NCBI GenBank assembly: GCA_965249325.1
Contig: CBDFLP010000012.1
Span: 6,428-70,427 of the forward strand
Origin: Dehalococcoidia bacterium
GTDB taxonomy: Bacteria; Chloroflexota; Dehalococcoidia; Lucifugimonadales; Australimonadaceae
Length of the DNA stretch: 64,000 bases
Reading direction: 5' to 3'
Shown here piece by piece: positions 7,482 to 64,000 of the stretch. The translations under genes and the position numbers were made by a program. Below the pieces are notes generated by a model. The model had not been told where the DNA came from. It was given only the letters and a program-made list of their open reading frames with translations, and did not search any database. Within the stretch, counting starts at the first letter, position 1. Every line of letters begins with the position of its first letter.

Positions 7482-8522
7482 CTAGTCGGGGACGTTGGCG
7501 AATGCCGGGAAGACCTTCAACGGGTTGGTGTTGATGATCGTGATCTTGTCCTCTTCCGAGAGCGAAGGCAGGTAGTCGATGACCGGGAGCAGGTTGTCGG
7601 AGGTGAGGCCGACTGCGGTCTGGGACGGGTGGTCGCTTTCCTTACGCACGTTGCGGCCAGAGCCGGGGGCTTCGGTGCCGAAGGCAATGTTCGCTGGGCC
7701 CCACTGCTTGATGGCAAGCTCGAGGTAGTCGATGTCGTACGTGCAGGTGTCGAAGAAGAGGTTGTCGCCCTTCCACTTGCCCCGGTGGCCGGAGGAAGCG
7801 ATGAAGCGGTCCAGCGCGCCTCCCGCGTGGGCGATGCAGATGCGGAGGCCGGGGAACTTCTCGAAGATGTCGCTGTAGGCGAGGATGCGCGTTGCGAGGA
7901 ACGTTTCGACGACGAACCCGACCTGGTAGTTGCCGGGGATGTGGCCGATGCGCGGATCTAGGCAGTTGGTGCCGTGGATGAACACCGGCACGTCCCACTC
8001 CTGGCACTTCTCATACACGGGGTGCCAGTAGGGCTCGTGCATGCCGGGTGAGTTGTGGCGGCCGTCCGGGTCCGGGCTCAGGTACGTGCCGACGAACCCG
8101 TAGTCCTTCACGTTCATCTCGAACTCGGGGATGCAGTTGCTGAGGTCCGGGGCCTCGGCAATCTGGGGCAGCATGGACGCGCCGAGGAAGCGGGTGGGGT
8201 GGTTCTGCACCTGCTTGCGGATGGTGTCATTTGTGAACTCGCACCATGGGTCGTAGAGGTTGCGGGGCATCCAGCCCATCATCGTGAACGGGCGCGGGCC
8301 GATGACTTGCACGTCGATGTTCCGCTCGTCCATGTACTCCGCGTGCATCTTGTTCGTCGCGGCGAACGCGTCGTCGCTGAGGTCGCCGCCCGCCGAGCCG
8401 GTCGCCCGCAGCGGGCTTGCGCCTACGTGCCCGGAGGAGAACCCTCCAACGATCCACGAGCGGACCGAATTCGGCGCCGATACGTGGCCGTGCACATCAA
8501 GAACCTTCGTGCCTTTGAACAT
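7482..8522 (-). CDS. Amidohydrolase_2 family metal-dependent hydrolase/decarboxylase (ACMSD-like)
   Basis: 346 aa. The N-terminal VLDVHGHV metal-binding HxH motif, a later HGT..., and IAHAGG are typical of this family. Confidence 0.85.
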   Translation of the reverse strand: MFKGTKVLDVHGHVSAPNSVRSWIVGGFSSGHVGASPLRATGSAGGDLSDDAFAATNKMHAEYMDERNIDVQVIGPRPFTMMGWMPRNLYDPWCEFTNDTIRKQVQNHPTRFLGASMLPQIAEAPDLSNCIPEFEMNVKDYGFVGTYLSPDPDGRHNSPGMHEPYWHPVYEKCQEWDVPVFIHGTNCLDPRIGHIPGNYQVGFVVETFLATRILAYSDIFEKFPGLRICIAHAGGALDRFIASSGHRGKWKGDNLFFDTCTYDIDYLELAIKQWGPANIAFGTEAPGSGRNVRKESDHPSQTAVGLTSDNLLPVIDYLPSLSEEDKITIINTNPLKVFPAFANVPD

Positions 8523-10634: not shown

Positions 10635-10873
10635 CAGGCCGTCTGTGCGAGGTTCAGGCTGATGCCGTCCATGGTGGGCAGGTCATCTCCCTCGCGTAGG
10701 GCAAGGAGGAGCCAGTCCTCGAATACACTCCGCAATTCCTCGCGGCAGGCTTCGAGGGTATTCTCGTTGGCCCATAGGCCTTGAAAGCCCTCGATTGTTC
10801 CGAAGAACGAGCCATCATCCAGCGCCTCGTAGCGCGCTTTGCGCATGCTGGCTCGTATGTATGCTGTCAGCAT
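10634..10873 (-). CDS. hicB: HicB-like antitoxin (UPF0150 fold)
   Basis: Start is taken at MLTAYIR (10873) inside ORF 10634..10936. FFGTIEGFQGLWANENTLEACREELRSVFEDWL matches the HicB N-terminal domain pattern. Confidence 0.7.
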   Translation of the reverse strand: MLTAYIRASMRKARYEALDDGSFFGTIEGFQGLWANENTLEACREELRSVFEDWLLLALREGDDLPTMDGISLNLAQTA

Positions 10874-18374: not shown

Positions 18375-19964
18375 TTACCTGTCGAGCCACGCTTCGTTCA
18401 GGATGAGCCAGCCTAACGGGTGCGGAAGCACATTGCGGACATCGTCCCGCTCGCCGTAGAGCACCGGCTGGAAGGCGGTGACCAGACGCGGCACGTCTTC
18501 CACCAGGATGCACTGGATCTGCTTGTACGTCTCTGCGCGCTCAGCTTCGTCCACCTGCCCGCGGGCCTTGACGATCAACGCGTCGAGTTCGTCGTTGTAG
18601 TAACGCGGGGCGTTCCAGGAGGAGTCGCTCATGTACTGGATGCTCAGCGCCTGGTCAGGCGTCCGGCCGAACCAGTACACCACGGTGAACGTCTCCACCA
18701 GCCAGGTGTTCGCCCAGAACTGGTCCTCGGGTCTTTGCACGAGGTTCACGGTGATGCCTGCCGGTGCCGCCCGCTCCTTGAAGGCGACCGATTGCTCCAG
18801 CATGCCCGGGCCGACGTTGCCGGTGTACAGGGTGACCTCTATCCCGTCCGGATAGCCGGCCTCCGCCAGCAACTGCTTCGCGAGCTCGGGGTCGTAGTCC
18901 GGAGGAGCGCACTCCGTAGTGAACACTGGGTCGTTGGGCGCTATCGGGTGATCGTAGGCGATGCTGCCTCTTCCGAAGAGCGCAGCCTGGCGTATGGCTT
19001 CGCGGTCGGTCGCGGCCTGGAAGGCCTGCCGCACCAGTTTGTTGTTGAACGGGGCCTCCCAGTTGCCGAGGTCCAGCCCGATGTGCGAAGAGCTGGCCGT
19101 TTCCAGCACCACGGTTCCGGGGTTAGCCTCGATGCTGGGAGCGGTGGGCGGTTCGAGTTGGTAGATGACATCCACGTCGCCGCTCTTGAGCGCTTCCGCC
19201 CGCGTCGATGGATCCGGGATAAGCTGGAACACCACCCCGTCCAAGTACGGCTTGCCATCGTCCCAGTAGTCGGGGTTCTTCGTGAGCACGGTCCGTTGGC
19301 CGGGCAGGTACTCCTCCAGGATGAAGGGGCCCGTCCCCACGCCTCCCAATGCCAACGATTCCAGGTCGACGTTCGACGGCAGGATCCTCGCCTGGTAGAT
19401 GGAGAGCACCTCTGGGAAGAATGCGCTCGGGCTGACGAGGTCGAACCGGATGGTGTAGTCGTCGATGATCTCCATGCTCTCGATGACCTCGAACGTGGAC
19501 CGGGCAGGGGAGTCGAGCACCGGGTCCAACAGGCGCTCGAACGAGAACACGACGTCCTCTGCCTTGAACTCCTTGCCGTTGTGGAACTCCACTCCCTCCC
19601 GCAGGTGGAAGGTGTAGGACGAAAGGTCCTCACTGGGTTCCCACGACGTGGCCAACTCAGGGTTCATGGAGAGATCAGGCTGGATCATCAGCAGGTTGTC
19701 GTACATCTGCTGGGTGATGATGGTGTCCGCCGTGCCCAACGTGAACAGCGGGTCAAGCGTGTTGTTCTCCGACACCAGCGTCACAGTGAGAGTTCCGCCG
19801 GTCTTCGGCTCGCCAGAGCCTGTACTGCCATCATCACCATCGTCATTGCCGCAGGCGCCGATTATGAAGAGCGCCCCGATAGCCAGCGCGATGAGCGCTG
19901 CCATGCGCAGCCACCTGGCCCTGCTGGTCTCGATGCCGGTTGCTTCTGCCATCTCTTCTGCCAT
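18375..19964 (-). CDS. ABC transporter substrate-binding protein, family 5 (peptide/nickel)
   Basis: 529 aa with a signal/lipobox-like N-terminus (LFIIGACGNDD) and an SBP_bac_5-type body. It is the first gene of the 4-gene operon. Confidence 0.9.
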   Translation of the reverse strand: MAEEMAEATGIETSRARWLRMAALIALAIGALFIIGACGNDDGDDGSTGSGEPKTGGTLTVTLVSENNTLDPLFTLGTADTIITQQMYDNLLMIQPDLSMNPELATSWEPSEDLSSYTFHLREGVEFHNGKEFKAEDVVFSFERLLDPVLDSPARSTFEVIESMEIIDDYTIRFDLVSPSAFFPEVLSIYQARILPSNVDLESLALGGVGTGPFILEEYLPGQRTVLTKNPDYWDDGKPYLDGVVFQLIPDPSTRAEALKSGDVDVIYQLEPPTAPSIEANPGTVVLETASSSHIGLDLGNWEAPFNNKLVRQAFQAATDREAIRQAALFGRGSIAYDHPIAPNDPVFTTECAPPDYDPELAKQLLAEAGYPDGIEVTLYTGNVGPGMLEQSVAFKERAAPAGITVNLVQRPEDQFWANTWLVETFTVVYWFGRTPDQALSIQYMSDSSWNAPRYYNDELDALIVKARGQVDEAERAETYKQIQCILVEDVPRLVTAFQPVLYGERDDVRNVLPHPLGWLILNEAWLDR

Positions 19965-27149: not shown

Positions 27150-27225
27150 GCCCCTGTAGCTCAAATGGCAGAGCGCCGGGCTTTTAACCCGGGCGTTGCA
27201 GGTTCGAGTCCTGTCGGGGGCACCA
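27150..27225 (+). tRNA. tRNA-Lys (anticodon UUU), CCA encoded
   Basis: Hand-folded cloverleaf. Acceptor is gcccctg/cgggggc, D stem gctc/gagc, anticodon stem ccggg/cccgg with loop cTTTTaa, T arm gcagg-ttcgagt-cctgt, discriminator A, then CCA. Confidence 0.85.
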
Positions 27226-38072: not shown

Positions 38073-38357
38073 CTAATGGTAGTCGACAATCTCGACTTCG
38101 GTTGGACCAGCGTGGCCGCTAGGCCAGCTGAAGCAGATACGCCATTGCCGGTTGATGCGGATGGCATACAGTCCTTCCCGATCACCCCTGAGCGTCTCCA
38201 GGCGGTTGCTGGGCAACGCTCGCAAAGTATCCAGCGACGGCGCAGCGTTCAGGACTGAGAGCCGCTTGGCCGCCTGCTGCTCGAATCCTTGGAATGCTGC
38301 AACGAACGCGCCGCCGGCGAATAATTCGGTCCGCTTGCCCCCGTACCCGAGAATCAT
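38073..38357 (-). CDS. higB: HigB-type toxin (RelE/ParE superfamily, plasmid maintenance killer-like)
   Basis: Start is at MILGYGGKRTELF. ...LRALPSNRLETLRGDREGLYAIRINRQWRICFSW..G...EVEIVDYH matches the HigB C-terminal signature. It lies 10 nt upstream of higA. Confidence 0.75.
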   Translation of the reverse strand: MILGYGGKRTELFAGGAFVAAFQGFEQQAAKRLSVLNAAPSLDTLRALPSNRLETLRGDREGLYAIRINRQWRICFSWPSGHAGPTEVEIVDYH

Positions 38358-38442
38358 GGTAAGAAGATAGCACATCGTGTGACGATGTACGTCAATCGTA
38401 CATGCAAGCGCCAGGTATAGCAAGGACGATTCACACGTCTCC

Positions 38443-38583
38443 GCTCATTCCCGCGCAGGCGGGAAAATCCTCTCCACCGTCTGCGGGGGAGAGTTAGGGT
38501 GGGGGCTGTCTGCGGAGGCGCAGCCCACGCCACCCGTCATTCCCGCGCCCCCTCCGTCATTCCCGCGAAAGCGGGAATCCAGG
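38443..38583. repeat. Cluster of REP-like palindromic elements (type A gtcattcccgcg-N3-5-cgggaatcc x3, type B x1)
   Basis: Type A copies are at 38443-38470, 38535-38548 (half) and 38556-38583. Inverted or diverged copies are at 39891-39920, 40031-40055, 40531-40557 and 53488-53515. Confidence 0.75.
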
Positions 38584-38763
38584 CGGCATGACCTTCCCAG
38601 CCAGGAAATCAAGAGGTCTCTTCACGCAAACGGATGACAGTTGGCCCTTGCCTGTTCGCCGCGCCCATCCTTAGCCTGTCTTCACAGCCTCTATCCCGGC
38701 GTATCGTGAGGGGGCGAAATAGGGGAGGACGCCGTGGGCGACGCTATGCTGGTTCCAGTAAGC

Positions 38764-39270
38764 ATGAAGCGAATGATGAGTGTGATGGTGATGGCTCTGG
38801 TGTTGTTCGTCTCTTGCCAAGATGCAACACCGGAACCACTTCCCACACCTGTTTCATACAACTGGCTATACTAAACCTATCAGCGAGAACGTGAAGCTAA
38901 CCCCACACGACTAGAGCAGAGAATAAAAGTCAGGCCACTTCATGTTGTCGAAGGACCGATTACCAGCATTCAGGGTTCGAAAATTCAATTCCATATTCGG
39001 CAAGTAATGCTGGGGAAAGACAAGTATGTTGAGTGTGTCTTCCCAGAGGACCGTTACGTGTTGGCTCTAAATATTGGGGAGACGGTATTAGTTGCAGGTA
39101 GACTAGATAGGGCCGATGAGGTTGTCAGGTTGACTGGCTGCATCCTGGTTCCTAAAGGCTACTTTTCCAATGAGCTGCTAAAGTTGACTCCTACTGCAGG
39201 GCCAACTCCAACCCCCACTGCGACACCACTCCCAACTCCCACTGCGGGGCCAACTCCAACCCCCCTGTGA
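38764..39270 (+). pseudogene. OB-fold (tRNA_anti-like) lipoprotein interrupted by in-frame TAA at 38872-38874
   Basis: MKRMMSVMVMALVLFVSC (lipobox) ...SYNWLY-TAA-TYQREREANPTRLEQRIKVRPLHVVEGPITSIQ... continues in the same frame into listed ORF 39007..39270, and a PT-rich tail follows. The region is visibly low in GC. Confidence 0.5.
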
Positions 39271-39410
39271 CACCGACCCCCCAGAACGTGACACTACCCC
39301 GCTGACCCCACCCGCCCCGCCTGCTACGATGACCCTTGCAATGGTCTTCCACGGGACAGAGCATCTATGCCGGCAGAGGCCAAGCAGGTGAAGGAGGAGA
39401 GAGAGGAACG

Positions 39411-39839
39411 ATGAAAGTCCTAGGCGTAGGTTTGCTCACCGTGCTCTGTGTGGCAGTTGGATGCGGCGGCGATCCAGGTCCCACGGCTACGCCCGTCGTG
39501 TGCGAGACAGACTTTTCGGCATTCGAGAAAAAGGGCATCGTCCACGATGACTATCAGGGCATCTGTGTTGAAGACGGCGGCTACTACCTGTACTTGACAT
39601 TGAGAAACAATACGGATGAACCCTTTCGCCTAAGTCTATTGCAAGGGGACAAAGACCCAAAAATCTTATACGAAGTGGGCAGGAAGTCCCTCAATGATGC
39701 CGCAGTCTATTTGTTGAAGGTGTGCCCATCCGACTGTGATGCAACGCAGGGGCAGGTGCAGATAGAAGTTGACGCTCCCGATGCCCCAGCCGATGTTGAG
39801 TGGGCAGTGCGAGTGGAAAAGAAAATAGACTCAACATGA
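39411..39839 (+). CDS. Hypothetical Cys-rich lipoprotein
   Basis: ATG 39411 lies behind AGGAGGAGAGAGAGG. The lipobox is MKVLGVGLLTVLCVAVGCGG. There is no recognisable domain, and composition is low GC like the preceding gene. Confidence 0.55.
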   Translation: MKVLGVGLLTVLCVAVGCGGDPGPTATPVVCETDFSAFEKKGIVHDDYQGICVEDGGYYLYLTLRNNTDEPFRLSLLQGDKDPKILYEVGRKSLNDAAVYLLKVCPSDCDATQGQVQIEVDAPDAPADVEWAVRVEKKIDST

Positions 39840-39890
39840 ACGGCAGCGCCATTCACTACAGCCCACGTTTGCTGCGGCGATACGGCGATT

Positions 39891-40093
39891 CCTGGATTCC
39901 CGCATGCGCGGGAATGACGGAGCGCCCGCCCCCTATGCGGCATTGTGGACGTTGAGGGGGCCTCTTCCTCGCTAGATATCCGCCGTCTGTGGGGGAGGGA
40001 CTTCGGGGTAGTGACGAATGGGAGGGGCTGCGAGGTTCCCGCCCGCGCGGGAATGCCCCCTCTCTAGCTCTCCCCCGCAGTTGGTGGAGAGGA
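39891..40093. repeat. Cluster of REP-like elements (type A inverted x2, type B inverted x1)
   Basis: 39891-39920 reads cctggattcccgcatgcgcgggaatgacgg. 40031-40055 reads cgaggttcccgcccgcgcgggaatg. 40056-40093 reads ccccctctctagctctcccccgcagttggtggagagga. Confidence 0.7.
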
Positions 40094-40251
40094 CTTTCGG
40101 ACGCAGGCGGCGCCCTTTGCGCAACACCTCACCACCACTACGACACTTGCCCCTTACGCCAACCCGCCTCCATCGCGTACCGTGGAATCCCATCATGCCT
40201 ATCCCCGCGCTACCCCTGATACCCCAACCCTGCCGCGCTGCCGATGCCCCC

Positions 40252-40326
40252 GAAAATCCTCCCCCCTGTCTACGGGAGGGTGTTTGGTCCTCTCCCCCGT
40301 CTGCGGGGGAGAGTTAGAGAGGGGGG
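40252..40326. repeat. Type B palindromic element pair
   Basis: A diverged hairpin gaaaatcctcccccctgtctacgggaggg is followed by cctctcccccgtctgcgggggagagttagagagggggg. Confidence 0.7.
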
Positions 40327-40653
40327 CCCTGGAACAAAGTGTTTTCACATTTATTTCGCACTCTTGATCGTGGGAAGCAGGCCGTGGCCTGCTAAACAGC
40401 CCTGATCAAGAAGGCGAAAGTACCCCTTTCAGCGACACTGCTCACCAATTCTTACGAGTGAAAATCCCATCAAGAAGCAGATTTGCTCCCTCGAAACACA
40501 CGTTTCTTCCCCGCGCGCCGGCAGAGGGGGCGAGGTTCCCGCCTTCGCGGGAATGGCGGGCGGACACGGCGCGGTTGTGAGCGTGCGTGGGGGGTGCTAT
40601 CCTTACGCCCGCGTCCCGGTGAGCCGGGGCGCTTCTGCGTGTAGGCGGCAACG

Positions 40654-54145: not shown

Positions 54146-54547
54146 ATGGCGCGCAAGAAGCGGGTGTTTATCAGTTTCGATTACGCTGACCGGGGCCTGA
54201 AGAACGACTTTGTCTGTCAGTCGGAGCAGCGTGATGTCCAAATTGCCATCACCGACGCATCGCTAGTCGAAGCGGAACCGGAGTCCCAGTGGGTCGCAGA
54301 AACCAATCGCCGAATCCAGAGTTGCGACGTGTTCATGGTTATCATGGGTCCGAACGCCCACCAAGCTCCCGGTGTGCTTCGTGAAGTAAGCATTGCCGTA
54401 GGGTTGAACAAGCCTCGGTTCCAGCTCAAGCCAAAGCGCAGGTACGGGTCTCCTGTGAAGAACGCAGGGGCAATAGTGCGGTGGCCGTGGAAGACACTGG
54501 AACCGTGGTTCACCATAGACTCCGGTCGAGCGGGCTGGCAGGCGTAG
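54146..54547 (+). CDS. TIR-like domain protein (DUF1863/MTH538-like)
   Basis: 133 aa. MARKKRVFISFDYADR..., then W....N.RI..CDVFMVIMGPNAHQAPGVLREVSIAV follows the TIR-like layout. The gene is lower in GC than its neighbours. Confidence 0.7.
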   Translation: MARKKRVFISFDYADRGLKNDFVCQSEQRDVQIAITDASLVEAEPESQWVAETNRRIQSCDVFMVIMGPNAHQAPGVLREVSIAVGLNKPRFQLKPKRRYGSPVKNAGAIVRWPWKTLEPWFTIDSGRAGWQA

Positions 54548-54548
54548 C

Positions 54549-54965
54549 GTGGACAAGGAAGCCGCCAGGATTGAGCACCTGAAGCTGATTCAGCAGGTAA
54601 TCGAACGTCTCGCTAGGAGTTCGTTCGTGATCAAAACTGCTGCGTCAACGGTTACCGCAGCCATCGTGGCAGCGACGGTCGCGGCTTCAACTCCGGCAAT
54701 CGGTTTGGGGGGCGTGGCGTTGCTTAGCCTATGGGGGCTCGATGCCTTCTACCTGCCGAGGGAACGTCGATTCCGGGCCCTCTTCAACCAAGTGCGCACA
54801 GGGGCGGCCTCAGAGTTCAGCACCAAATCCTACTTCACGATGACAACCCACCCTGGCCCGTCCGGGAGTGTATGGAGAGCAGCTTGCTCATCGACGCTGG
54901 TGACTCTCTACCCGTCTCTTCTTCTGGTAATCGGGGCACTGGCCGCAGCAACGGAGGTTGCCTAG
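54549..54965 (+). CDS. Small membrane protein (about 3 hydrophobic helices), candidate effector partner of the TIR-like protein
   Basis: GTG 54549 lies 1 nt after the TIR gene stop. It has an N-terminal amphipathic helix (EHLKLIQQVIERLARSSF), two adjacent hydrophobic segments and a C-terminal hydrophobic segment. Confidence 0.6.
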   Translation: MDKEAARIEHLKLIQQVIERLARSSFVIKTAASTVTAAIVAATVAASTPAIGLGGVALLSLWGLDAFYLPRERRFRALFNQVRTGAASEFSTKSYFTMTTHPGPSGSVWRAACSSTLVTLYPSLLLVIGALAAATEVA

Positions 54966-55471: not shown

Positions 55472-56779
55472 TCACCCTGTCGCCGCCGCCTCGCGGGCGT
55501 TCGCTTCTTCGACGAGGCGGTGTATCGCCCTTATCTGGCCGCTGAAGATGAACGCGAGGGCGGTGACGGCGATGACGGCGGCACCTCCCACGGCTATGGC
55601 GAAGGGCGTGCTGGTGAACGAGGCGACGAAGCCCGCTTGCAGCGCGCCGAGGGGCGCGAGGCTCCACATGACGCCCCGAAGCCCCATCACGCGCCCGCGG
55701 TACTCCGTCGGGACCAGCAGGTTGAGCAGCGTGTTGGAAGCCGTCTGGAACACCGAGTAGAGCCCGCCGCTCGCCGCGGCCATGGCGAGGGCGAGCCAAT
55801 ACCACTGCATGATCCCGTTGACGCCGAACAGCACCACGGACAGGCCGAGCAGCCCCGCGCCGCCGCCGAGCATGAGCGCCCTGCTCTGGTGCTGTCCGTA
55901 CGAAGCGGAGAGGAAGATGCCGATGAGGCCTCCGACGCCGCTTGCGGTCTGCAGCAGGCCGAGGCCCTCGGGGCCCAGTCCCAGCACGTCCGTCGCGTAG
56001 GCGGGCAGCAGCCATTGATAGGAGAGCCCGAAGTAACCGATGGAGAAGCTCATCATGAGCAGCAGAAGGAAGATGCGATGCCTCGCGACGAACTTGAGGC
56101 CGTCCGCGATGTCGTGCAGCATGGTCTTGCCGGTCGCGCGCCGCATCCCTTCAGGCAGCTTGATGGTTACGATGGCGATGGCCATGGCGGCGAACCCCGC
56201 CGCGATCAGGTAGAAGGCGACAGCAGCCCCGAGACGGAAGTCGCCCGTGACTGCGCCGACGATGGCGATCGGCCCCGCCGCGATCATGGGCGCGAACACC
56301 CGCGTTCCGTTCCACACGCTCTGGTTCAGAGCTGTCGCGAACATGAACTGGTTCCGCTGGATGAGCGCGGGCCAGACCACGCGGCGCGCGGGCTGGTCCA
56401 GCGACGTCGAGATGCCGATGAGGAACGACGAGAAGACGATGTGCCAGACCTCGACGCGTTCGATCAATACGAGGGTGGCCAGCGCCGCGATGATGATGGC
56501 CGAGAAGCCCTCGCCCAAGAGGATGAGGCGCCGGGGATCGATCCGGTCCGCGAGGGCGCCCGCGACGAGGTTGAAGATGATTGCGGGGATGGCCTGGGCA
56601 GCCGCCACGAGGCCCAGGGCGACCTCTTCGCCGGTCATGTCGTAGACGAGCCATCCTTGGGCGGTGAGCAGCGCCTGATGCGACGTGACGCTCGCGACGA
56701 GGCCCAGCCAGTAGCGGCGGTAGTACCTCGTGCGGAGGACGGAGAGGAACTCGAAGCGTCGGGCCAGAGCGTTGCGCAC
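55472..56779 (-). CDS. MFS transporter (MFS_3 / enterobactin-exporter-like)
   Basis: 435 aa with about 12 TM segments and the motif GALADRIDPRRL. Confidence 0.85.
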   Translation of the reverse strand: MRNALARRFEFLSVLRTRYYRRYWLGLVASVTSHQALLTAQGWLVYDMTGEEVALGLVAAAQAIPAIIFNLVAGALADRIDPRRLILLGEGFSAIIIAALATLVLIERVEVWHIVFSSFLIGISTSLDQPARRVVWPALIQRNQFMFATALNQSVWNGTRVFAPMIAAGPIAIVGAVTGDFRLGAAVAFYLIAAGFAAMAIAIVTIKLPEGMRRATGKTMLHDIADGLKFVARHRIFLLLLMMSFSIGYFGLSYQWLLPAYATDVLGLGPEGLGLLQTASGVGGLIGIFLSASYGQHQSRALMLGGGAGLLGLSVVLFGVNGIMQWYWLALAMAAASGGLYSVFQTASNTLLNLLVPTEYRGRVMGLRGVMWSLAPLGALQAGFVASFTSTPFAIAVGGAAVIAVTALAFIFSGQIRAIHRLVEEANAREAAATG

Positions 56780-57150
56780 CGGGTTACGTTACCCTTGTTC
56801 GGCCCCCTCCTCAATCCTCTGTTGCCTGCGAGCAGTGTCGGCGAGACCCTTGCCTAGGCAACCCTCTGAGCAAATGGCTGATGCCTCCAACCCCCCCTGC
56901 AGGACCCCTCTCCCGTCTGGAGACCTTTGCGTAACACGCGTCGGAGGCGAACGGCGGCATTTGCCCATTGCCCAGTTCTTCGCAATGCCCTACAATGAAG
57001 TGTCATAATGTCGTCATTCCCAGGGCCGCAGGCCCCCAACCACCGGCGGTGGAGACTGAGAGGGGGCAGGCCGCATGAAATAAAAAAACATTATCGGTCA
57101 GGTTGTAGCCCTAACCCAGGAAGCAGGCCACGGCCATGAAAACGCCCCCC

Positions 57151-57276
57151 GAAAAGCTGACCGGTCCCTGTTTTCCGGTAGGGTTTTTACTCGTAACGAA
57201 ATGTGCAACCGGTCAGCTTTTTACTCGTAACGAAAATGCAAACGGTCAGCTTTAATGTGCAAACGGTCAGCTTTTC
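57151..57276. mobile_element. MITE-like element: 13-bp terminal inverted repeats enclosing tandem direct repeats
   Basis: gaaaagctgaccg (57151-57163) is the exact reverse complement of cggtcagcttttc (57264-57276). Inside are three direct repeats ending in (a/c)cggtcagc (57184-57218, 57219-57250, 57251-57271). Confidence 0.5.
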
Positions 57277-57295
57277 GGAAGTGATAGGGGTGTAG

Positions 57296-58552
57296 GTGGC
57301 CATTTTTAGCTCCACGATCCGGCGCGCCCGGTCTGGCTTCTACGGTTGGCGCATCGTCGCCCTCATGCTCGGGCCCCGGTCGGTCGGGAACGGCGTGTAC
57401 GTCTTCGGCAACACGCTGTTCGTCATCCCCCTCGAAGAGACGCTGGGGTTGAACCGCAGCCTGTCGTCGCTGATGTTCGCCATAGGGGGCGTGATAGGCG
57501 GGCTGTCGGCGCCCGTCAGCGGAATGCTCATGGACCGGTGGGGCCCGCGGCGGGTGCTGATATGGAGCGTGCTGATCGGCGCGGCGGGCTACGGTCTGTT
57601 CGCAGGCTCGCCGAACCTGATGGTCGCCTTCATCATCTTTCTTGGCCCGATCAGCCTCGTCATGCTGAACATCGCGTTCAATGCCTCGTCAGGGATCATC
57701 AACAACTGGTTCAATCGCTACAAGTCCACGGCGTTCGCGCTCATGCAAGGAGGCTCCGGGCTGGGGTCGCTTGCGATCATCACGGCGCTGGCGTTCGCCA
57801 TCGATGCGTGGGGATGGAGACAGGCGTCGCTCCTCGCAGGCGCAATCATCCTGGCGGTGGGGCTTCCCACTGCTCTCGCCACGCGGGATACGCCGGAGGA
57901 GATGGGGCTGCACCCGGACGGCGAGGCGCCGGTCAGGTGGGCGTCGGTCCCGCCCGGCGCCCTGGCCGGGCCGTCGGCCGGCGCGGCGTTGCGCACGCCG
58001 AGCTTCTGGATGATGGTGGCGACGACCACCCTGTTCGGCGGTGCGATGACGGCCCTGGGCATCCACTTCGTGCCGGTGATGGTATGGAAGGGGCTGACCG
58101 AGGTGGAGGGAGCGTTGATGCTCACGGTCTGGGCGCTGGGCAGCGTCGTGACGATAGCGGCGGTCGGGGCGCTTGCGGACCGGCTAGGCCGATTCCGTGT
58201 CGGGGGCGGGGCGTGCCTGTTCGTGGGGACTGGCGTCTTACTGCTGAACGTCGGCGGCGCTGGGGTGGGGTTGTGGGTCGCGGTCCTACTGCTGTCGGGG
58301 TCGAGCAGCCTCTACCCGTTGATGTGGTCGATTCTTGGCGAGCTGTTCGGCCGCCGAGCTTACTCCACGATCCGGGGCTACGTGATGGCGGCGCAAGCCG
58401 ACGGCTCCCTGGGAGCCCCCATCATGGCCGGCGCGGTGTTCGAGGCGACGGGCAGCTACGTGTTCCCGCTGTGGGTCCTCGCCGGCATGTGGGCCGGGGC
58501 CGCGCTGCTGATGTTCGTTACCCCGAACCGGACCTATGTGAGGCTGACGTAG
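57296..58552 (+). CDS. MFS transporter (oxalate/formate antiporter-like)
   Basis: 418 aa with a GTG start, about 12 TM segments and the motif GMLMDRWGPRRV. Confidence 0.85.
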   Translation: MAIFSSTIRRARSGFYGWRIVALMLGPRSVGNGVYVFGNTLFVIPLEETLGLNRSLSSLMFAIGGVIGGLSAPVSGMLMDRWGPRRVLIWSVLIGAAGYGLFAGSPNLMVAFIIFLGPISLVMLNIAFNASSGIINNWFNRYKSTAFALMQGGSGLGSLAIITALAFAIDAWGWRQASLLAGAIILAVGLPTALATRDTPEEMGLHPDGEAPVRWASVPPGALAGPSAGAALRTPSFWMMVATTTLFGGAMTALGIHFVPVMVWKGLTEVEGALMLTVWALGSVVTIAAVGALADRLGRFRVGGGACLFVGTGVLLLNVGGAGVGLWVAVLLLSGSSSLYPLMWSILGELFGRRAYSTIRGYVMAAQADGSLGAPIMAGAVFEATGSYVFPLWVLAGMWAGAALLMFVTPNRTYVRLT

Positions 58553-58573
58553 GACGTCTAGTCCACCGTTCGG

Positions 58574-59617
58574 CTAGTGGCCGGGCTGGGAGGAGCGCTC
58601 CTCGCGGTAGAAGACTTCTTCGGGGAAGATCTCGTCCCAGGGCTGCTTGGCGGGGCTGAGGCCCTGCTCGACCGAGAACTGCTGCGCCATGTCGAACGCC
58701 TTGGCGTTGGGCTCGATGCCGTAGGCGAAGGGGTCGGGGCCGAACACGTCGTCGACCTCCTTCTGGAACTGCGCGCCGAACACATAGAGCGTCGGGGGCA
58801 GAGAGCGGAGGCGCTCCATGGCGATGCGCTTCGAGGACTCGAACGCCTCCATGAGGCTTACGGCGACCCAAGGGCGCTCTTCGAGGATGCTCTCTCGGAT
58901 AACAGTGACGTGGTGGGGCGGGAAGACGCCGTGCTTCTTGAAGAAGCGGACCGATTCGGCTTTGGGGTCGGAGAAGAGAGGAGGGAAGTCGGGGCTGTTG
59001 CGGAGGTCGCGGCTCTGCTGGCGGTCGATGCCGGAGCCGCGGACGGAGCCGATACCGATGGAGGCGTCGAGCTCGCCGTTCGAGTACATCGAACTGAAGT
59101 CGGTCGTCGCGTGGCGGAGATCCAACCCCTCGGGGAGGCCGAGGCCCGCGTCCTTGGAGGCGCCGGTGTGGCTGTAGTGCTCGCTGCGCTCCATGAACCA
59201 GGTCATGTCCTCGGGCTCGACGCCCCACTCGAGCTTGAGGATGCCGCGTGTCCATAGCCCGACGGACTGCTGGTAGTCGCCGATGCCGAAGCGCTTGCCC
59301 TTGAGGTCCTCCGGGTGGTCCTGGCGAATGCCGGCCGCCTTCCGGATGTAGACGTTGGTGTAGGAGAAAGTCCGGTTGTGGAAGACGGGGAGCATGCGGT
59401 AGGGGAAGCCGAGGGGCCGCATCCGCAGGTACGACGACATGGACATCTCGGAGACGTCGTAGCGCTGGAACTTGATTTGCTCGTAGAACACGCGGGGCAC
59501 GGCTCCCGGCATGCCCTTGTAGTCGAGCTCGATGCCGTCCGGCTTCACCTCGCCGGAGATCATGGGCACGACGCGGTCGTAGGCAGTGATGGCGAAGGAG
59601 AGTTCGAGGTTGGACAT
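58574..59617 (-). CDS. PhtD-like (4,5-dihydroxyphthalate decarboxylase family) / NMT1-THI5-like periplasmic-binding-fold protein
   Basis: 347 aa. MSNLELSFAITAYDRVVPMISGEVKPDGIELDY...FYEQIKFQRYDVSEMSMSSYL matches my recollection of the PhtD-family N-terminus. Confidence 0.7.
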   Translation of the reverse strand: MSNLELSFAITAYDRVVPMISGEVKPDGIELDYKGMPGAVPRVFYEQIKFQRYDVSEMSMSSYLRMRPLGFPYRMLPVFHNRTFSYTNVYIRKAAGIRQDHPEDLKGKRFGIGDYQQSVGLWTRGILKLEWGVEPEDMTWFMERSEHYSHTGASKDAGLGLPEGLDLRHATTDFSSMYSNGELDASIGIGSVRGSGIDRQQSRDLRNSPDFPPLFSDPKAESVRFFKKHGVFPPHHVTVIRESILEERPWVAVSLMEAFESSKRIAMERLRSLPPTLYVFGAQFQKEVDDVFGPDPFAYGIEPNAKAFDMAQQFSVEQGLSPAKQPWDEIFPEEVFYREERSSQPGH

Positions 59618-59707
59618 GAGGGCGACCTCCGGGCGGGGTGTTCGATGTGGGGATGATACGCGATGGCGAGGTGGGGGCGTGTGGGGTGGCCCTCAGTAAT
59701 CGGTGTC

Positions 59708-60340
59708 CTAGGTAGCCAGCACTGCTTCCACATCTTTCCGTAGCTCGGCGAATGCAGGCAATTGTGAGAGATTGGCGAAGGTCTTGGTTTCCTCAGCGAT
59801 CCTAATCCAAGTACGCGCCGTGAAGAGATTGCGTTCCCGCCGGCGATGGCGGGTGGTGGCCTCGGCTGCCAAGGAGACTAAGTCGCGGAGTGTCTTCTTT
59901 GGGTCGGGTAGGTCCTCCAAGTGGGTGGTTGTGGGCAGACTCAGGAGAGTCGCGCCGTTGGGGTTCCGGGCTGCGTTCCGAATAGCCTGCTCGTCGGTAA
60001 GCAGCCACGTTTCCGTCATCTTGACAGGGATGACGGGAATGTGCTTGGCGACTGACGTGACTCTGTCCACAGCAACCTGAATCTCGGCTCGGCGGGCATG
60101 GGGAGATTGACTCTCAGCATCACGATGGACGAAGAGAATGTCACAGGGGAAGAGACTTAGGGCCATCGCAATCCGGCCATCAAGGAGGCTCGGCGGGCGA
60201 GGAACCCCTCGAAGATCGGCGAATGCTGGGACAAGCGTTAGGTTAGGTTCGATATCCGTTAGGAGCCAATTGATAATCGGCTTAAGTGCCTCATCGGATG
60301 GCCCGTCAGTTAAAAGCGTGTAGTGGAGTTCGCGCGCCAT
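59708..60340 (-). CDS. DUF4276-like protein (possible TOPRIM-like partner of the upstream ATPase)
   Basis: 210 aa. LLTDGPSDEALKPII (acidic motif 1), LFVHRDAES (motif 2) and VIPVKMTETWLLTD (DUF4276-like E-x-WLL-x-D). It starts 5 nt after the ATPase stop. Confidence 0.6.
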   Translation of the reverse strand: MARELHYTLLTDGPSDEALKPIINWLLTDIEPNLTLVPAFADLRGVPRPPSLLDGRIAMALSLFPCDILFVHRDAESQSPHARRAEIQVAVDRVTSVAKHIPVIPVKMTETWLLTDEQAIRNAARNPNGATLLSLPTTTHLEDLPDPKKTLRDLVSLAAEATTRHRRRERNLFTARTWIRIAEETKTFANLSQLPAFAELRKDVEAVLAT

Positions 60341-60345
60341 GCTGT

Positions 60346-61872
60346 CTAAACGGGGAGGGGCAGCATGAGCTGAACGTCGCTACGCTGTGCGACAAGTTTT
60401 TCGCGCCGGCGTGTGGAGGGTTGGTCAGAGTCCTGAGGCTCCTCTTCGTCATCTGGAACGCCTGCGGGGTTGAGGTAGGACATGAGCGTCCCAAGAGCGA
60501 TTGGGTTAGGAGGCCGACCCTCCTTTGTATCGAGTTCCTCTCTCCAGGTGTAGGGGAGATATCCGAACCGTACGTACGCTGCGCGGCCATCCCCAGAGGG
60601 AGCAGGCCTGTTGACTGATTGGGAGACCAGCAGACTTGATTCCGGCACGTGAGTAACCACCACCGGAGAGTGAGTGTTAACCATGACCTGCCGCAGGGGG
60701 CTGCTTTGCGGGAAGTCGTTCTTTGGGTCCGTTGTGATGTCGTTCAAGAGACGCAGCATTGCGGGGACACGCGCCGGGTGTATGCCGTTCTCGGGCTCCT
60801 CCAGGCAGATTAGTCCTCCGGAGTCCTCCTCCATTTCTAGGATGGCGAGAGCTAGGAACCGGAGCGTCCCGTCTGATAGCGAACGGGCGTCATGTGGCGT
60901 GCCGTCGCTAAGGCGCACCTGAAGGGTCAGGAGCTCTCGTTGGTCGTCCCGATGCACCACAACTTTGCCGACGTCATCAATCAGTTGAGCGAGTCGATTG
61001 GAAATGTCAGTGTAGACGGCCTCTTCATCAACTGCGGAAGGGATGCCGGACTCAACTTGCGGGACTGTCGCCATGTAGTGGAGTGTTGCGGCTGCGTGAG
61101 CGCCATCCATCCCAAGGTGGATGGGCGACGTGAACTCATCGGGCTTACGCAGTGCAGAAGGCTCTAGTTGTAGACGCTTCCAGGATGACATTTCATTCTT
61201 CGCAAGAAGGGCAGTTGGACTCTCCGCGGCATTGACTGCCGATAGGACTGTTCGCGGAAGGTCACGAGCCGATCGATTGAGGGTTCGGCCTGAACGCCCA
61301 TCTTGATGGAGCCGTATGACGCGGCTTTCACCGTCTCCTACGGTGGTGATGTAAGGTGCGGCACGCTGTCCTGTGACAACTGATCTTCGCCAGGTAGGGG
61401 TATGGTGAAACCCCAATCGTCGTGGGGCCTCCGTCTTATTGATGTGAGACAGCGTCTCCTCTGTAATCTCAATGCTGTTGGGGCCTGTTCTAGTTCTCTC
61501 TCGGTAGGCGAGCTCCAGCGAGTACCGGAGGTACGTGCTGGTCGCGTGAGCGTCTTGCCCGAGGTCGTCTCTCCCCGTCCCGGGCACAATCATTTCGGCC
61601 TCAAAGCCCATCGTAGACGCCTGGCTATCGCCTGATCGGTGGAAAAGGCTTCGGACATCAGCTGACCTACCGCCCTCCTCACGGACGGTCGTCGCTGCTT
61701 CGAGGAGTGGGCGGCTGGCCAAGAGGCTGAGGAAGTGGATTGCGTCGAATAGGTTCGATTTGCCAGTCGCATTCGGGCCCGCGATGCAAGTGAACGGGCC
61801 AAAGGCGATATCCACGTCAACGAGATTCTTGAAACCCGAGATTTTTAGACGAGTAAGCATAACGCTCCTCAA
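60346..61872 (-). CDS. ABC/SMC-like AAA ATPase (AAA_21/AAA_15, OLD/AriA/RecF-like)
   Basis: MLTRLKISGFKNL, Walker A GPNATGKSNLFDAI, signature-like LSDGTLRFLAL and Walker B/D-loop LICLEEPENGIHP are present. The start is 61872 or ATG 61860. Confidence 0.8.
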   Translation of the reverse strand: MRSVMLTRLKISGFKNLVDVDIAFGPFTCIAGPNATGKSNLFDAIHFLSLLASRPLLEAATTVREEGGRSADVRSLFHRSGDSQASTMGFEAEMIVPGTGRDDLGQDAHATSTYLRYSLELAYRERTRTGPNSIEITEETLSHINKTEAPRRLGFHHTPTWRRSVVTGQRAAPYITTVGDGESRVIRLHQDGRSGRTLNRSARDLPRTVLSAVNAAESPTALLAKNEMSSWKRLQLEPSALRKPDEFTSPIHLGMDGAHAAATLHYMATVPQVESGIPSAVDEEAVYTDISNRLAQLIDDVGKVVVHRDDQRELLTLQVRLSDGTPHDARSLSDGTLRFLALAILEMEEDSGGLICLEEPENGIHPARVPAMLRLLNDITTDPKNDFPQSSPLRQVMVNTHSPVVVTHVPESSLLVSQSVNRPAPSGDGRAAYVRFGYLPYTWREELDTKEGRPPNPIALGTLMSYLNPAGVPDDEEEPQDSDQPSTRRREKLVAQRSDVQLMLPLPV

Positions 61873-61940
61873 CTGACCCGGACCGGTGTTTGTACGTCCA
61901 CCCCAATTCTATCTCGCCCCAATCGTACCCGCTGCCTAGC

Positions 61941-62396
61941 CTAGCCAATCTCCAAAGTGTTGAAGACGCCGCGTTGGAGGGCGGCGGTGGAGAGGAGTTG
62001 TTCTAGGACTACGTGGGCCTCGGGGCGGCGAAGGTCTAGGGACGAGACGCCGATAGCCCGATAGAGGACGCCTGAGCCGACCTTCGTGGTCGTCTCTCCG
62101 CCGATTTCGGTGGGGAGTTCTATGCCGAGGGCAAGAGCCATCGCCTGCGCTTGCATCTCGCCGACGCCCGAGGCGTGGGTCTTGGTGAGGACGCGGCCGT
62201 TATAGAGCAGCGAATAGCCGTTCTTGTTGCGCCGGATGGCGACGGGCGTCTCCCCGCGCGGACGGTTGATGAGGCGCTCCGCGTAGTCGAGCGCCTTGAT
62301 CCGTGAGATTGCGATGGCTTCCTTCTCAGTCCTTCCCTGTCTGCGAGGCCTTTGCGTAACTCTTTCCGGCGGCCGTAGCTCTTCCCACCCGCCCAC
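61941..62396 (-). CDS. Hypothetical protein (possibly first gene of the ATPase cassette)
   Basis: The 151-aa ORF is co-directional and 68 nt upstream of the ATPase gene. Its N-terminal codons overlap a dispersed repeat, so the true start is uncertain. No motif was recognised. Confidence 0.3.
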   Translation of the reverse strand: MGGWEELRPPERVTQRPRRQGRTEKEAIAISRIKALDYAERLINRPRGETPVAIRRNKNGYSLLYNGRVLTKTHASGVGEMQAQAMALALGIELPTEIGGETTTKVGSGVLYRAIGVSSLDLRRPEAHVVLEQLLSTAALQRGVFNTLEIG

Positions 62397-62657
62397 CCGT
62401 TATGCTGTGGGGGACACCCCCACGCCCCCGGCAGAGGGGCTTGGCCCCTCTGCACTCCCTGGTATTCCAGGCCGGTTCATAGTTCGACAGGCTCACCACG
62501 AATCAGTCGATGCCGCGCTCGTTCATGTCTGCGAGTCGCTGGTCGGACATGCTGTTGCGTCGAGGTTACGCAAGGGTCTTTTTGCGGAGGAGTGGGGGAA
62601 TAAATTCTCCCCCGCCGTTGCACAAGGGCCTGCGGCGGGGGAGAAGGATGAAGGAGG

Positions 62658-64000
62658 TTAGACGGCGCACTCGCCTTCGCCGCGCTCCAGCTTGTAGAGG
62701 ATGGTCTTGCCCCAGTCCACGTAGGTGTCGAGGTTCTCCTTGTTGAGGGCGCCGACTTCGCGGTACTGGTTGGCGAGCTGCTCGAAGGGAGTTGTGCCGA
62801 CGCGATCGACGAAGTCGTTGAAGGGCTCGCCTTCGTTTCGCTCGCTCCGGTAGTGGGCGATGATGTCGTCCATGAAGGCCGGAACGCGCTTGGCGGGCAC
62901 CTTGGCCTTGACGCGATGGCCGAAGCGCACGGGGTCCTGGTTGCCGTAGTTGCCGGCGAGGAAGACCTCGTAGGCCGGCGCTTGCTGCCCGCCTTCGCCC
63001 TTGGCCGCCGCGCCGTGGAAGCCAATGTTGGCGATGTGGTGACGCGAGCAGCCGTTCGGGCAGCCGCTCACCTTGACGTGCAAGCTGTTCACCAACGGGT
63101 CCTCGATCTCCTTCTCGCGGATCGTCTCACGCAGCGCCTCGGCGACGCCCATGGACGAGGTGATTCCCATCTTGCAGCTGTCGGTGCCGGGGCAGGAGAC
63201 GACGTCGGTAATCTTGTTCGCGCCGTCTTCCGCCAGGCCGATGGCCTTGAGGTCGGACCAGAATGCGTGGAGATGGCCCTCCGGCACCCATCGGTAGAGG
63301 AGGTTTTGCTCGGTCGTGGTGCGAATGCGCCCGCCGGCGTACTTCCGCGCAATCTCGGCCAGCGCCGGGAACTGACGCTCGTAGATGTCGCCGAGGGGCA
63401 GGGTGACGTAGACGGCGTAGTAGCCGTCCTGCTGTTGCGCGAGGGCGTTGGTGGCCTTCCACTTGAGGAAGGCGGGTTCGGAGTGATTCCCGGTTACAGG
63501 GACGAGCGGGGGAGGCTCGTCGATCATCTCGGGCGGGAGCTCCATCCATGGAGTGGGGTCGAAGTCGGCCTTTGCCCAATCGCCCTCCATCTCCTTCTCG
63601 ACCTCGGCCCTGAAGGCCTCGATGCCGATGCGGTCGACGTAGAACTTGATGCGGGCGCGCATCTTGTTCTTACGCAGCTCGCTCGTGCGGTGGAAGACGC
63701 GGATGGCGGCTTCGGCCACCTTGAGGTACTCGGTGACGGGCACGAAGTCGGAGAGGACCCACGCGATGCGGGGCATGATGGACGTGCCGCCGCCCACGCG
63801 CATCTCGAATCCCTTGACGCCGTCCTGAACCTTGGGGATGAAGGCGAGGTCGTGGATGTCGGCGACGACCTCGTCGTCCCCCCCGCTGGAGAAGGAGGTC
63901 TTCCACTTGCGGGGAAGAGTCTGGGTGTACTCGTGGCGCACGAAGTAGCGGGCGTAGGCGGTGAGGTAGGGCGCGACGAAGAAGGGCTCCTCAGGCTTCA
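62658..64000 (-). CDS. Ferredoxin-dependent sulfite/nitrite reductase (siroheme + 4Fe-4S), 5' end outside window
   Basis: Cluster/siroheme Cys motifs are CPGTDSCKMGI and SGCPNGCSRHHIANIGFHG. The frame stays open beyond the listed start (63941) to the window edge (...EEPFFVAPYLTAYARYFVRHEYTQ). Confidence 0.9.
   Translation of the reverse strand, partial: KPEEPFFVAPYLTAYARYFVRHEYTQTLPRKWKTSFSSGGDDEVVADIHDLAFIPKVQDGVKGFEMRVGGGTSIMPRIAWVLSDFVPVTEYLKVAEAAIRVFHRTSELRKNKMRARIKFYVDRIGIEAFRAEVEKEMEGDWAKADFDPTPWMELPPEMIDEPPPLVPVTGNHSEPAFLKWKATNALAQQQDGYYAVYVTLPLGDIYERQFPALAEIARKYAGGRIRTTTEQNLLYRWVPEGHLHAFWSDLKAIGLAEDGANKITDVVSCPGTDSCKMGITSSMGVAEALRETIREKEIEDPLVNSLHVKVSGCPNGCSRHHIANIGFHGAAAKGEGGQQAPAYEVFLAGNYGNQDPVRFGHRVKAKVPAKRVPAFMDDIIAHYRSERNEGEPFNDFVDRVGTTPFEQLANQYREVGALNKENLDTYVDWGKTILYKLERGEGECAV

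Follow-up and report, generated by a model that had tools for sequence, protein, structure and literature searches.

The HEC-01 gene pair and its gene models

A window of 64,000 nt from a Dehalococcoidia bacterium of the phylum Chloroflexota (GenBank assembly GCA_965249325.1, contig CBDFLP010000012.1, positions 6,428 to 70,427) carries two adjacent genes on the minus strand that match HEC-01, which PADLOC lists as 'Hma-embedded candidate 01'. HEC-01 pairs an ABC ATPase with a TOPRIM-like protein and was described as a candidate found embedded in Hma systems (10.1101/2024.01.29.577857). In the window, gene A (HEC-01A, 60346..61860) encodes the ABC ATPase of 504 amino acids (aa), and gene B (HEC-01B, 59708..60340) encodes a 210-aa divergent DUF4276-like protein, a putative metal-dependent (TOPRIM-like) nuclease effector. 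The two genes are separated by a spacer of 5 nt (60341..60345) and, together with a 78-nt leader and a 20-nt tail, make up a strain-variable cassette of 2,251 bp (59688..61938). We consider it probable that the pair is an intact HEC-01-type candidate anti-phage module that was acquired as a 2.25-kb cassette in a variable chromosomal slot, and in which an ATPase sensor controls a metal-dependent nuclease.

An initial annotation of this DNA, made from the sequence alone, had described the pair and a third minus-strand open reading frame (ORF) upstream of it. All three ORFs, the motifs quoted for them and the 5-nt gap were found where it placed them. It had missed that the pair is already catalogued as HEC-01 in PADLOC and that other representatives of HEC-01 have been tested against phages twice, with opposite outcomes.

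The ATPase had been read as a protein of 508 aa from a TTG start. The ORF itself stands, but translation almost certainly begins at the ATG at 61860, because a GAGGAG ribosome-binding site lies 4 nt upstream of this codon in the cassette leader (61861..61938, minus strand), homologues begin with MLTRL and the public call (P0193) is 504 aa long. For gene B, the length of 210 aa was upheld, since homologues of ~200-220 aa cover 97-99% of the protein. The public call of gene B (P0001) is 152 aa long and begins at the internal Met59; it is 100% identical over 72% of the 210-aa protein and lacks strand 1 and the conserved DGxSD motif, the first of the putative catalytic motifs.

The impression that the core genes are richer in A and T than their flanks was borne out. 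The GC content of the cassette is 0.581, compared to 0.652 for the remainder, and GC content at third codon positions (GC3) is 0.622 and 0.630 in genes A and B compared to a host mean of 0.853 (sd 0.043, 30 host genes), which corresponds to z values of -5.3 and -5.1.

Assignment of the ATPase and of the pair to HEC-01

The ATPase matched the PADLOC HEC-01A model PDLC04184 with an E value of 1.9e-104 and 348 bits (residues 5-412 on profile positions 1-397 of 464), and B matched the HEC-01B model PDLC04210 with an E value of 2.1e-23 (residues 5-209 on profile positions 4-210 of 217). Other PADLOC models that matched the ATPase (AriA, mad3, AbiLi, NsnB, PtuA and GajA) were far weaker or partial, and B had no PADLOC match to any family besides HEC-01B, and thus none to AriB, GajA or Old. 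The PADLOC run that the initial annotation had proposed thus assigned the pair to candidate system HEC-01, with both proteins matching their models over the full length and with the same gene order, adjacency, co-orientation and sizes, as well as an ABC-type ATPase with a beta-rich insert. Judged by its sequence, the locus agrees with HEC-01 in every feature by which that system is recognised. It differs in that the cassette stands alone between metabolic genes and is not embedded in an Hma, BREX or restriction-modification system. It also belongs to the subcluster PDLC04184/PDLC04210, in which B is mostly below the DUF4276 threshold, and differs in this from the canonical-DUF4276 subcluster PDLC04177/PDLC04201 present in L001, a contig from a related organism. 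There, a second HEC-01 of this other subcluster (PDLC04177, 5.9e-132; canonical DUF4276 PDLC04201, 5.4e-65) lies ~3 kb from a first one, with a SocA_Panacea-domain gene nearby (L001 13846..15656 and 18748..19293).

The call of an SMC/ABC-like ATPase was supported by Pfam, with matches to AAA_21 (4.7e-25) and AAA_15 (5.4e-15) and short N-terminal matches to SMC_N and AAA_23. The motifs GPNATGKS, LSDGTLRFLAL and LICLEEPENGIHP are present. Numbered from the ATG, the protein contains a Walker A motif (A27-G-P-N-A-T-G-K34-S35), a Q-loop (Q231-L-E-P), an ABC signature (L328-S-D-G-T-x-R-F), a Walker B motif (C352-L-E-E-P-E-N-G-I-H-P) and an H-loop (N395-T-H-S-P), and all of these, in Walker B the E-E-P-E segment, are invariant or almost so among 42-77 homologues. 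The C-terminal tail is near-invariant as well (R489, V490, R493, D495 and P501) and follows an acidic linker of low model confidence (residues 466-488). Linker and tail together span 60346..60435 (residues ~466-504), and the conserved motif may act as a peptide that docks on the partner protein or mediates oligomerisation.

The structure model of the ATPase was of moderate quality (pLDDT 70, pTM 0.49). Its top Foldseek matches were to PtuA from Septu and from the retron Ec78/Eco7 complexes (8eea, 8sux, 9n6c and 9l7p; E ~1e-8, TM ~0.2), followed by the heads of SMC, cohesin and Rad50 (E ~1e-8 to 1e-6, low TM), although the ranking of PtuA above SMC and Rad50 is approximate because the model is only moderate. 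AriA and GajA were not among the top 50 structural neighbours. The N-terminus also matched the class 2 OLD structure 6P74 (5.5e-6).

The SMC and Rad50 heads among these hits, together with N-terminal matches of the Walker A region to RecF, SMC, RecN and Rad50, would fit a housekeeping ATPase for DNA repair or chromosome maintenance (RecF/RecN/SbcC-like) with an accessory protein. These matches cover only ~45-80 residues and fall far below the model cutoffs: RecF scored 41 bits against a cutoff of 172 and aligned to residues 6-85 only, and SMC and RecN reached at most 21 bits. The genes are moreover strain-variable, compositionally foreign and patchily distributed, and we regard a housekeeping role as extremely improbable. 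The initial annotation had named grouping with RecF/RecN-type proteins as an outcome that would overturn its call, and no such grouping was seen.

Conservation of the A-B linkage

Relatives of B numbered 245 at E <= 1e-3 in a word-indexed search and at least 544 in a genome scan of species-representative genomes, and they occur in Planctomycetota, Chloroflexota, Cyanobacteria, Acidobacteriota, Desulfobacterota, Spirochaetia, Bacteroidota and others. The ATPase family comprises at least 7,655 clusters at E <= 1e-20. Across many phyla, 80 of 81 loci have A directly upstream of B and in the same orientation, and the one exception is on a contig without room for A. Synteny elsewhere, on which the initial annotation had made its call depend, is therefore strong. 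In 36 of 76 pairs the stop of A and the start of B overlap over 4 nt, in 9 others they overlap over 8 nt, and in 53 of the 76 the spacing is zero or negative, indicating translational coupling.

The nearest neighbours of 80 loci (142 ORFs) were surveyed with Pfam and PADLOC. No family occurred in more than 3 of these ORFs, which indicates that the A-B pair is a self-contained two-gene unit, and no recurrent third gene, methyltransferase, helicase, recombinase, integrase or transposase was found among them. The B family was carried by 2 of 72,556 plasmids, by none of 50,697 phage genomes and by no entry in IMG/VR.

A related cassette lies on contig L097 (8001..10276) at an unrelated site (dnaA-obg-nadD ... 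gyrB); its A protein is 74-76% identical to that of the window, and its B is called as 262 aa. Measured against this 74-76%-identical cassette, dN/dS was 0.13 for A and 0.31 for B, which indicates that both genes are under purifying selection. The module appears intact, as all catalytic motifs of the ATPase and all invariant residues of B are kept.

The cassette occupies a variable chromosomal slot

The boundaries of the cassette were delimited by comparison with L083, a contig from the same species, in which 3.6 kb of unrelated small genes replace window positions 59688..61938 precisely. On one side, window 64000..61939 aligns with L083 6466..8528 at 96.8% identity, and on the other, window 59687..55479 aligns with L083 12130..16341 at 96.2% identity; nothing is common inside the swapped segment, which in the window consists of genes A and B only. 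The start of the variable DNA lies 0-2 nt past the stop codon of a small upstream gene, here termed the anchor gene, in four genomes, and its end lies ~70 nt upstream of a gene for a 347-aa protein. The distal boundary of the slot is the conserved region upstream of this 347-aa gene (59618..59687, minus strand), which contains a shared GTATCATC box and was placed by a junction comparison of the window, L083, L086 and L001 together with BLAST boundaries. The 347-aa gene itself (58574..59617, minus strand) is the distal anchor of the slot and a host gene with 86-88% aa identity in sister genomes.

In the sister genomes represented by L084-86 and L098, the slot holds a minus-strand cluster of 3-4 genes (L086 8401..11897; L098 7372..10877). 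Its ~660-aa protein, which lacks Pfam domains, matched the PADLOC candidate PDC-M33A (8.5e-16). The alternative cargo of L083 (8531..12063) appears to be split into six small ORFs, by decay or by assembly errors.

The related organism of L001 carries a HEC-01 cassette at the same position, with A 75% and B 61% identical to those of the window. Synonymous divergence between the two cassettes is saturated, while dS is ~0.5 for the flanking host genes; hence the cassettes were not inherited together with their flanks and arrived or were replaced independently. In L001 a perfect direct repeat of 77 bp (8316..8392 and 10644..10720) lies on either side of the cassette; its sequence is that of the anchor gene's 3' end with the stop codon, as would be expected if a circular DNA that bore this segment had been inserted by a single crossover (Campbell-type). 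No second copy of the 77-bp segment was found in the window or in L082-L086, and a search around the window cassette for repeats, att-like sites and duplicated target sequence yielded only a 5-nt chance match. There is no tRNA gene near the cassette; the only RNA gene detected in the window, tRNA-Lys(TTT) at 27150..27225 (plus strand), is not its integration site.

The GC3 deviation of genes A and B, the swap in L083, the saturated synonymous divergence from L001 and the cassette at an unrelated site in L097 together indicate that the cassette is foreign and was horizontally acquired. In related genomes, other defence-like cargo is found in this slot between the small host gene and the 347-aa gene.

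The upstream small gene is a host gene

The anchor gene (61941..62396, minus strand; family core 61941..62315) is the 151-aa ORF that the initial annotation had suggested as a third component. A three-gene system has in its favour that the ORF lies on the same strand 80 nt upstream of A with no predicted terminator between them, and that it precedes the cassette in L001 too. However, it is absent from the other 79 HEC-01 loci and lies outside the strain-variable segment, and it is present in most relatives without HEC-01 and in sister genomes with unrelated cargo downstream. Its GC3 of 0.81 is host-like (z = -1.0), and it diverges like host genes and is under purifying selection, with dN/dS of 0.09-0.18. 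By its distribution, the slot boundary, GC3 and divergence, a three-gene system is effectively refuted, and we give it next to no credence.

The anchor gene family comprises 67 clusters with proteins of 122-125 aa. Chloroflexi is the source of its sole named hit, and many of its members are encoded on contigs of Mb scale that are in part circular. Searches of Pfam, PADLOC and NCBIfam gave no match. The conserved ATG of the family is ATC in the window, with a Shine-Dalgarno-like run (GAAGGAAG) just upstream; homology to L001 begins exactly at this ATC codon, and the DNA upstream differs. The only canonical start is a GTG at 62396, 27 codons further up, which gives the 151-aa public call P0192. 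Owing to the ATC at the conserved ATG, the start is uncertain, and the protein has either an extended N-terminus from 62396 or a non-canonical start at 62315. The comparisons indicate that the anchor gene is a conserved lineage-specific host gene that anchors the variable slot, and no component of the system.

B is a divergent DUF4276 relative

The motifs TDGPSDE, HRDAE and MTETWLLTD are present in B. Invariant or near-invariant positions in the family alignment (A1) are D12, G13, D16, C66, F70, H72, R73, D74, E76, E86, E110, W112, P147 and K148. The AlphaFold model was of high quality (pLDDT 93.4, pTM 0.89), and its core, as assigned by DSSP, consists of four strands alternating with helices (b1 4-10, b2 35-40, b3 68-72, b4 99-103), followed by a helical C-terminal half. 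The acidic motifs come right after strands 1, 3 and 4 (D12-G13-x-x-D16, H72-R73-D74-x-E76 and E110-x-W112). A canonical DUF4276 protein in L001 (Pfam 61.9 bits), encoded ~4 kb from the L001 cassette, has the motifs VEGGGD, LLVDSED and METWLLAD, whose order is that of TDGPSD, VHRDAE and MTETWLLTD in B and whose spacing is similar.

Among 41 relatives of B, 29 matched the Pfam DUF4276 model (E <= 0.01, best 3e-6), and a profile of B aligned with one canonical DUF4276 by hhalign with a probability of 39% (E 3e-4), partially and around METWLL only. It is clear from these sequence comparisons that B is a divergent relative of DUF4276 that lies formally outside the Pfam family.

The positions that correspond to the acidic residues of TOPRIM domains are D12, within DGxSD, and D74-x-E76, and these are at least 90% conserved or invariant in the family; the canonical DUF4276 of L001 has EGxxD and DSED there. 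HEC-01B was reported as TOPRIM-like with an OLD-like metal site (10.1101/2024.01.29.577857), and DUF4276 has been placed in the Toprim superfamily, with Mad4 named as a homologue and RloB likewise as a new Toprim member (PMC12065111). B is consistent with a TOPRIM fold in the order of its motifs and of its secondary structure only; otherwise the fold is asserted by these two papers.

Relationship to other ATPase-nuclease systems

A comparable pair is found in MADS, where an AAA_15/21 ABC ATPase (Mad3) also lies beside a DUF4276-type protein (Mad4). Deletion of mad3 or mad4 lowers MADS defence in P. aeruginosa, and the lethal deletion of mad5 is tolerated only when mad2 or mad3 is also deleted (10.1101/2023.03.30.534895). 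The window pair might accordingly be an orphan Mad3/Mad4-type module of a MADS/Hma or restriction-modification system whose partner genes lie elsewhere. In support, the ATPase aligned over its full length with the NCBIfam model MAD3 (131 bits, E 5e-38) and matched the PADLOC mad3 model, HEC-01 was discovered inside Hma systems, and both Mad3 and Mad4 are needed for MADS defence. Yet the MAD3 score is far under the equivalog cutoff of 420, B has no mad4 match, and no mad1, mad2 or mad5-8 lies nearby, although mad6-8 are mandatory for assignment to MADS, along with a methyltransferase. The flanks are metabolic and transport genes, methyltransferases and helicases do not recur among the neighbours of other loci, and the segment swapped in L083 holds two genes only. 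We therefore consider an orphan module very improbable, and the window pair is better described as a self-contained mobile unit.

Likeness to PARIS, OLD and AbiL had been proposed in the initial annotation. The analogy of design stands, and has also been drawn in the literature, where MADS3-4 and AbiL are grouped with PARIS as ATPase and TOPRIM systems (PMC11464382); membership does not. PARIS consists of the ABC ATPase AriA and the DUF4435 TOPRIM tRNase AriB. The window ATPase has partial AriA matches in its C-terminal lobe (4.2e-27, residues 290-406) that are far below the HEC-01A match, and B has no similarity to AriB or DUF4435. PARIS is also typically borne by phages or satellites, whereas the B family was not found in the phage and viral collections searched. 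OLD and GajA likewise combine an ABC ATPase with a (putative) TOPRIM-type metal-dependent nuclease, but there the domains are fused, and GajA needs the helicase GajB. In the window the genes are separate, no UvrD-like neighbour is present, and matches to GajA and Old were weak and confined to the ATPase.

The PtuA proteins of Septu and retrons provide the closest solved structures to the window ATPase. Their partner is the HNH nuclease PtuB, the TM of the structural matches is low (~0.2), and the PtuA sequence model matched only weakly (2.8e-12). AbiL (AbiLi with the RloB-like AbiLii) and the NsnB/NsnC-DUF4276 variants of Menshen also pair an AAA_21-type ATPase with a small Toprim-superfamily protein. 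The window ATPase matched AbiLi at 2.4e-17 and NsnB at 1.9e-12, and B had no match to AbiLii, RloB or NsnC, nor is there an NsnA-like third gene. Membership in PARIS, OLD/Gabija, AbiL, MADS, Septu and RecF-type families was rejected in each case, as the pair did not qualify.

Neighbouring genes and other features of the region

The neighbours of the cassette are a nitrite/sulfite reductase-family gene, the small host gene, the 347-aa gene and MFS transporters. The flanking gene that had been called sulfite reductase was confirmed as a NirA/Sir-type hemoprotein of the nitrite/sulfite reductase family. The label 'PhtD-like' had been given to the 347-aa downstream gene and found no support, as this gene had no Pfam or NCBIfam match at the thresholds applied.

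Two plus-strand genes at 54146..54965 encode a 133-aa TIR_2-domain protein (28.2 bits against a gathering threshold of 28) and a 138-aa protein that matched PDC-M50A (2.8e-24). They lie in a low-GC patch (~53750-54750, GC ~0.59), and their GC3 is foreign (z values of -3.8 and -4.4). This pair is probably a second defence insert, separated from the HEC-01 cassette by ~5 kb. Other genomes that carry the anchor gene have more defence-like genes close to it and to the sulfite reductase gene: a ThsB_TIR-like gene and an Nmad3 gene in L082 (4756..5949), and a cluster of TnsA-like, ResIII and N6_N4_Mtase genes in L099 (9843..14026). The defence-like genes of L082 and L099 suggest a broader variable region.

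Further away, positions 38300..40650 have the lowest GC content of the window (~0.57-0.58), with no ORF above ~170 aa and no Rfam match. Five REP-like hairpins (TTCCCGC-N4-GCGGGAA) occur there, at 38448, 38560, 39897, 40036 and 40536, where none was expected by shuffling, and a 24-nt tandem repeat lies at 39202..39274.

Discussion

The interpretation of this locus as an anti-phage module with a nuclease effector is favoured by the family assignment, by the conserved linkage and by its defence context, in which the alternative cargo of the slot matches the candidate PDC-M33A and a TIR and PDC-M50A pair lies 5 kb from the cassette. Several observations weigh against it. In the founding test in E. 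coli, HEC-01 gave no defence against the phages tested (10.1101/2024.01.29.577857). No enrichment of defence genes is seen directly next to the 80 loci, so that guilt by association lends no support outside the lineage of the window. A promoter and terminator scan predicted no sigma-70-like promoter and no terminator between the anchor gene and gene A, which leaves the cassette without a predicted promoter; the sole minus-strand terminator-like site in the scan (62628..62609) lies 3' of the sulfite reductase gene, and co-transcription of the cassette from upstream is thus possible.

The remaining points of this kind concern protein B. Its match to Pfam DUF4276 (PF14103) scored 18.2 bits against a gathering threshold of 30.2 (E 0.0031) and covers residues 79-156 only, outside which the N-terminal motifs lie; the likeness to DUF4276 that had been recognised by eye was therefore real, but it is weak and below threshold. 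The canonical TOPRIM Glu after strand 1 is replaced by Asp, and DxD by DxE. Foldseek searches with the B model gave no match at E <= 0.001 in PDB (best E 0.044) or in BFVD (best E 0.023), with TM <= 0.37, and no TOPRIM entry was among the top 50 neighbours in either; a RloB-like protein ranked 41st in BFVD (E 0.79). A profile of the B family searched against PDB sequences matched nothing but a cytochrome c2, by chance. An hhalign comparison with P2 Old gave a probability of 0.06%, a test of little power given that the comparator, built from phage P2 Old and viral-contig relatives, retrieved close relatives only and was shallow (Neff ~1.4). The TOPRIM-like fold proposed in the initial annotation thus holds for the order of motifs and secondary structure and found no backing in Foldseek, the PDB profile search or hhalign against P2 Old. 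As every independent computational test for TOPRIM was negative or inconclusive, 'TOPRIM-like nuclease' is used here for B as an inference supported by the literature.

These negative searches raise the question of whether B instead serves as an adaptor or regulator or belongs to a different class of enzymes, such as the nucleotide- or NAD-related hydrolases, with the ATPase acting as the effector. No structural or profile match to TOPRIM or to a nuclease was significant, the weak PDB neighbours of B are generic Rossmann-like folds (KaiC, RpiB and transcarbamylases), and the invariant His-Arg (H72-R73) before the acidic motif is atypical of TOPRIM. On the other hand, the acidic motifs after b1, b3 and b4 match canonical DUF4276 in order and spacing, DUF4276 was assigned to Toprim in two independent papers (PMC12065111; 10.1101/2024.01.29.577857), and the related ABC-ATPase partners AriB, OLD and GajA are nucleases. 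We consider it rather unlikely that B is not a nuclease.

The failure of the founding test could also be explained if the pair were a selfish addiction or toxin-antitoxin-like module, in which a toxic nuclease and an ATPase antidote are kept by post-segregational killing or hitch-hiking and have no real anti-phage role. Neighbourhoods that are not enriched for defence, movement of the cassette between sites and the Pfam label of AAA_21 ('putative AbiEii toxin, Type IV TA system') would agree with this. Against it, a HEC-01 representative from a cold seep is reported to have shielded E. coli B from one or more of the phages T4, T5 and T7 (PMC12881386). The family is moreover scarce on plasmids and absent from the phage genomes and viral contigs searched, where addiction modules thrive, and the other occupants of the slot are defence candidates. 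An addiction module is, in our judgement, improbable.

For the anti-phage module that we favour, a mode of action can be proposed by analogy with PARIS, P2 OLD and Mad3/Mad4 of MADS. The ATPase would oligomerise through its ABC heads in an ATP-dependent, head-engaged manner and keep B inactive. A phage cue would be recognised and, coupled to ATP binding or hydrolysis, B would be freed or activated. The acidic cluster of B (D12/D16, D74/E76 and E110) would then bind divalent metal and cut nucleic acid, which might be tRNA or other RNA if B is like AriB and OLD, or DNA if it is like Gabija. AriB and P2 OLD are reported to be tRNases under the control of an ABC ATPase (PMC11464382; 10.64898/2026.07.10.737580), and for this reason DNA is no more likely to be the substrate than tRNA or other RNA. 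Cleavage by B would halt the replication of the phage and would probably be costly for the cell. Family assignment, linkage, conservation, intactness, foreign origin and variability of the slot are shown by the comparisons above; a role against phages in this host, a nuclease activity of B, its substrate and its trigger are inferred.

A more far-reaching proposal has two parts. The HEC-01B subfamily with DGxSD, VHRDAE and MTEtWLL motifs might be an effector unlike solved structures, either a strongly remodelled TOPRIM with an Asp/His-Arg-Asp-x-Glu site or another catalytic fold, and two-gene defence cassettes might be exchanged at a chromosomal slot without a recombinase of their own, by recombination of the Campbell type in which the anchor gene's 3' end takes part. 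The possibility of such exchange is raised by the 77-bp repeat in L001 and by HEC-01 alleles that diverge from each other and arrived independently at one nucleotide position in two related genomes. That both parts hold is unlikely.

HEC-01 is a kind of system that is already known and catalogued, and the window locus adds no new kind. Modestly new are the precise boundaries of a minimal 2,251-bp cassette, evidence that one chromosomal slot is occupied alternately by divergent HEC-01 alleles and by a different candidate system with no associated recombinase, and the correction of the truncated public model of gene B. Because the cassette is intact, minimal and precisely bounded, and has comparators from the same and sister species, it is a convenient construct for tests of HEC-01 function. 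The locus also offers a small case study of the turnover of defence cargo at a chromosomal slot in an under-studied phylum. Pairs of an ABC ATPase and a nuclease are among the commonest designs of bacterial immunity (OLD, Gabija, PARIS, Septu and MADS), and the DUF4276 branch is large. The locus would gain in interest if proteins of the B subfamily turned out to be effectors of distinct structure or catalysis, or if repeat-mediated exchange of cassettes proved to be general.

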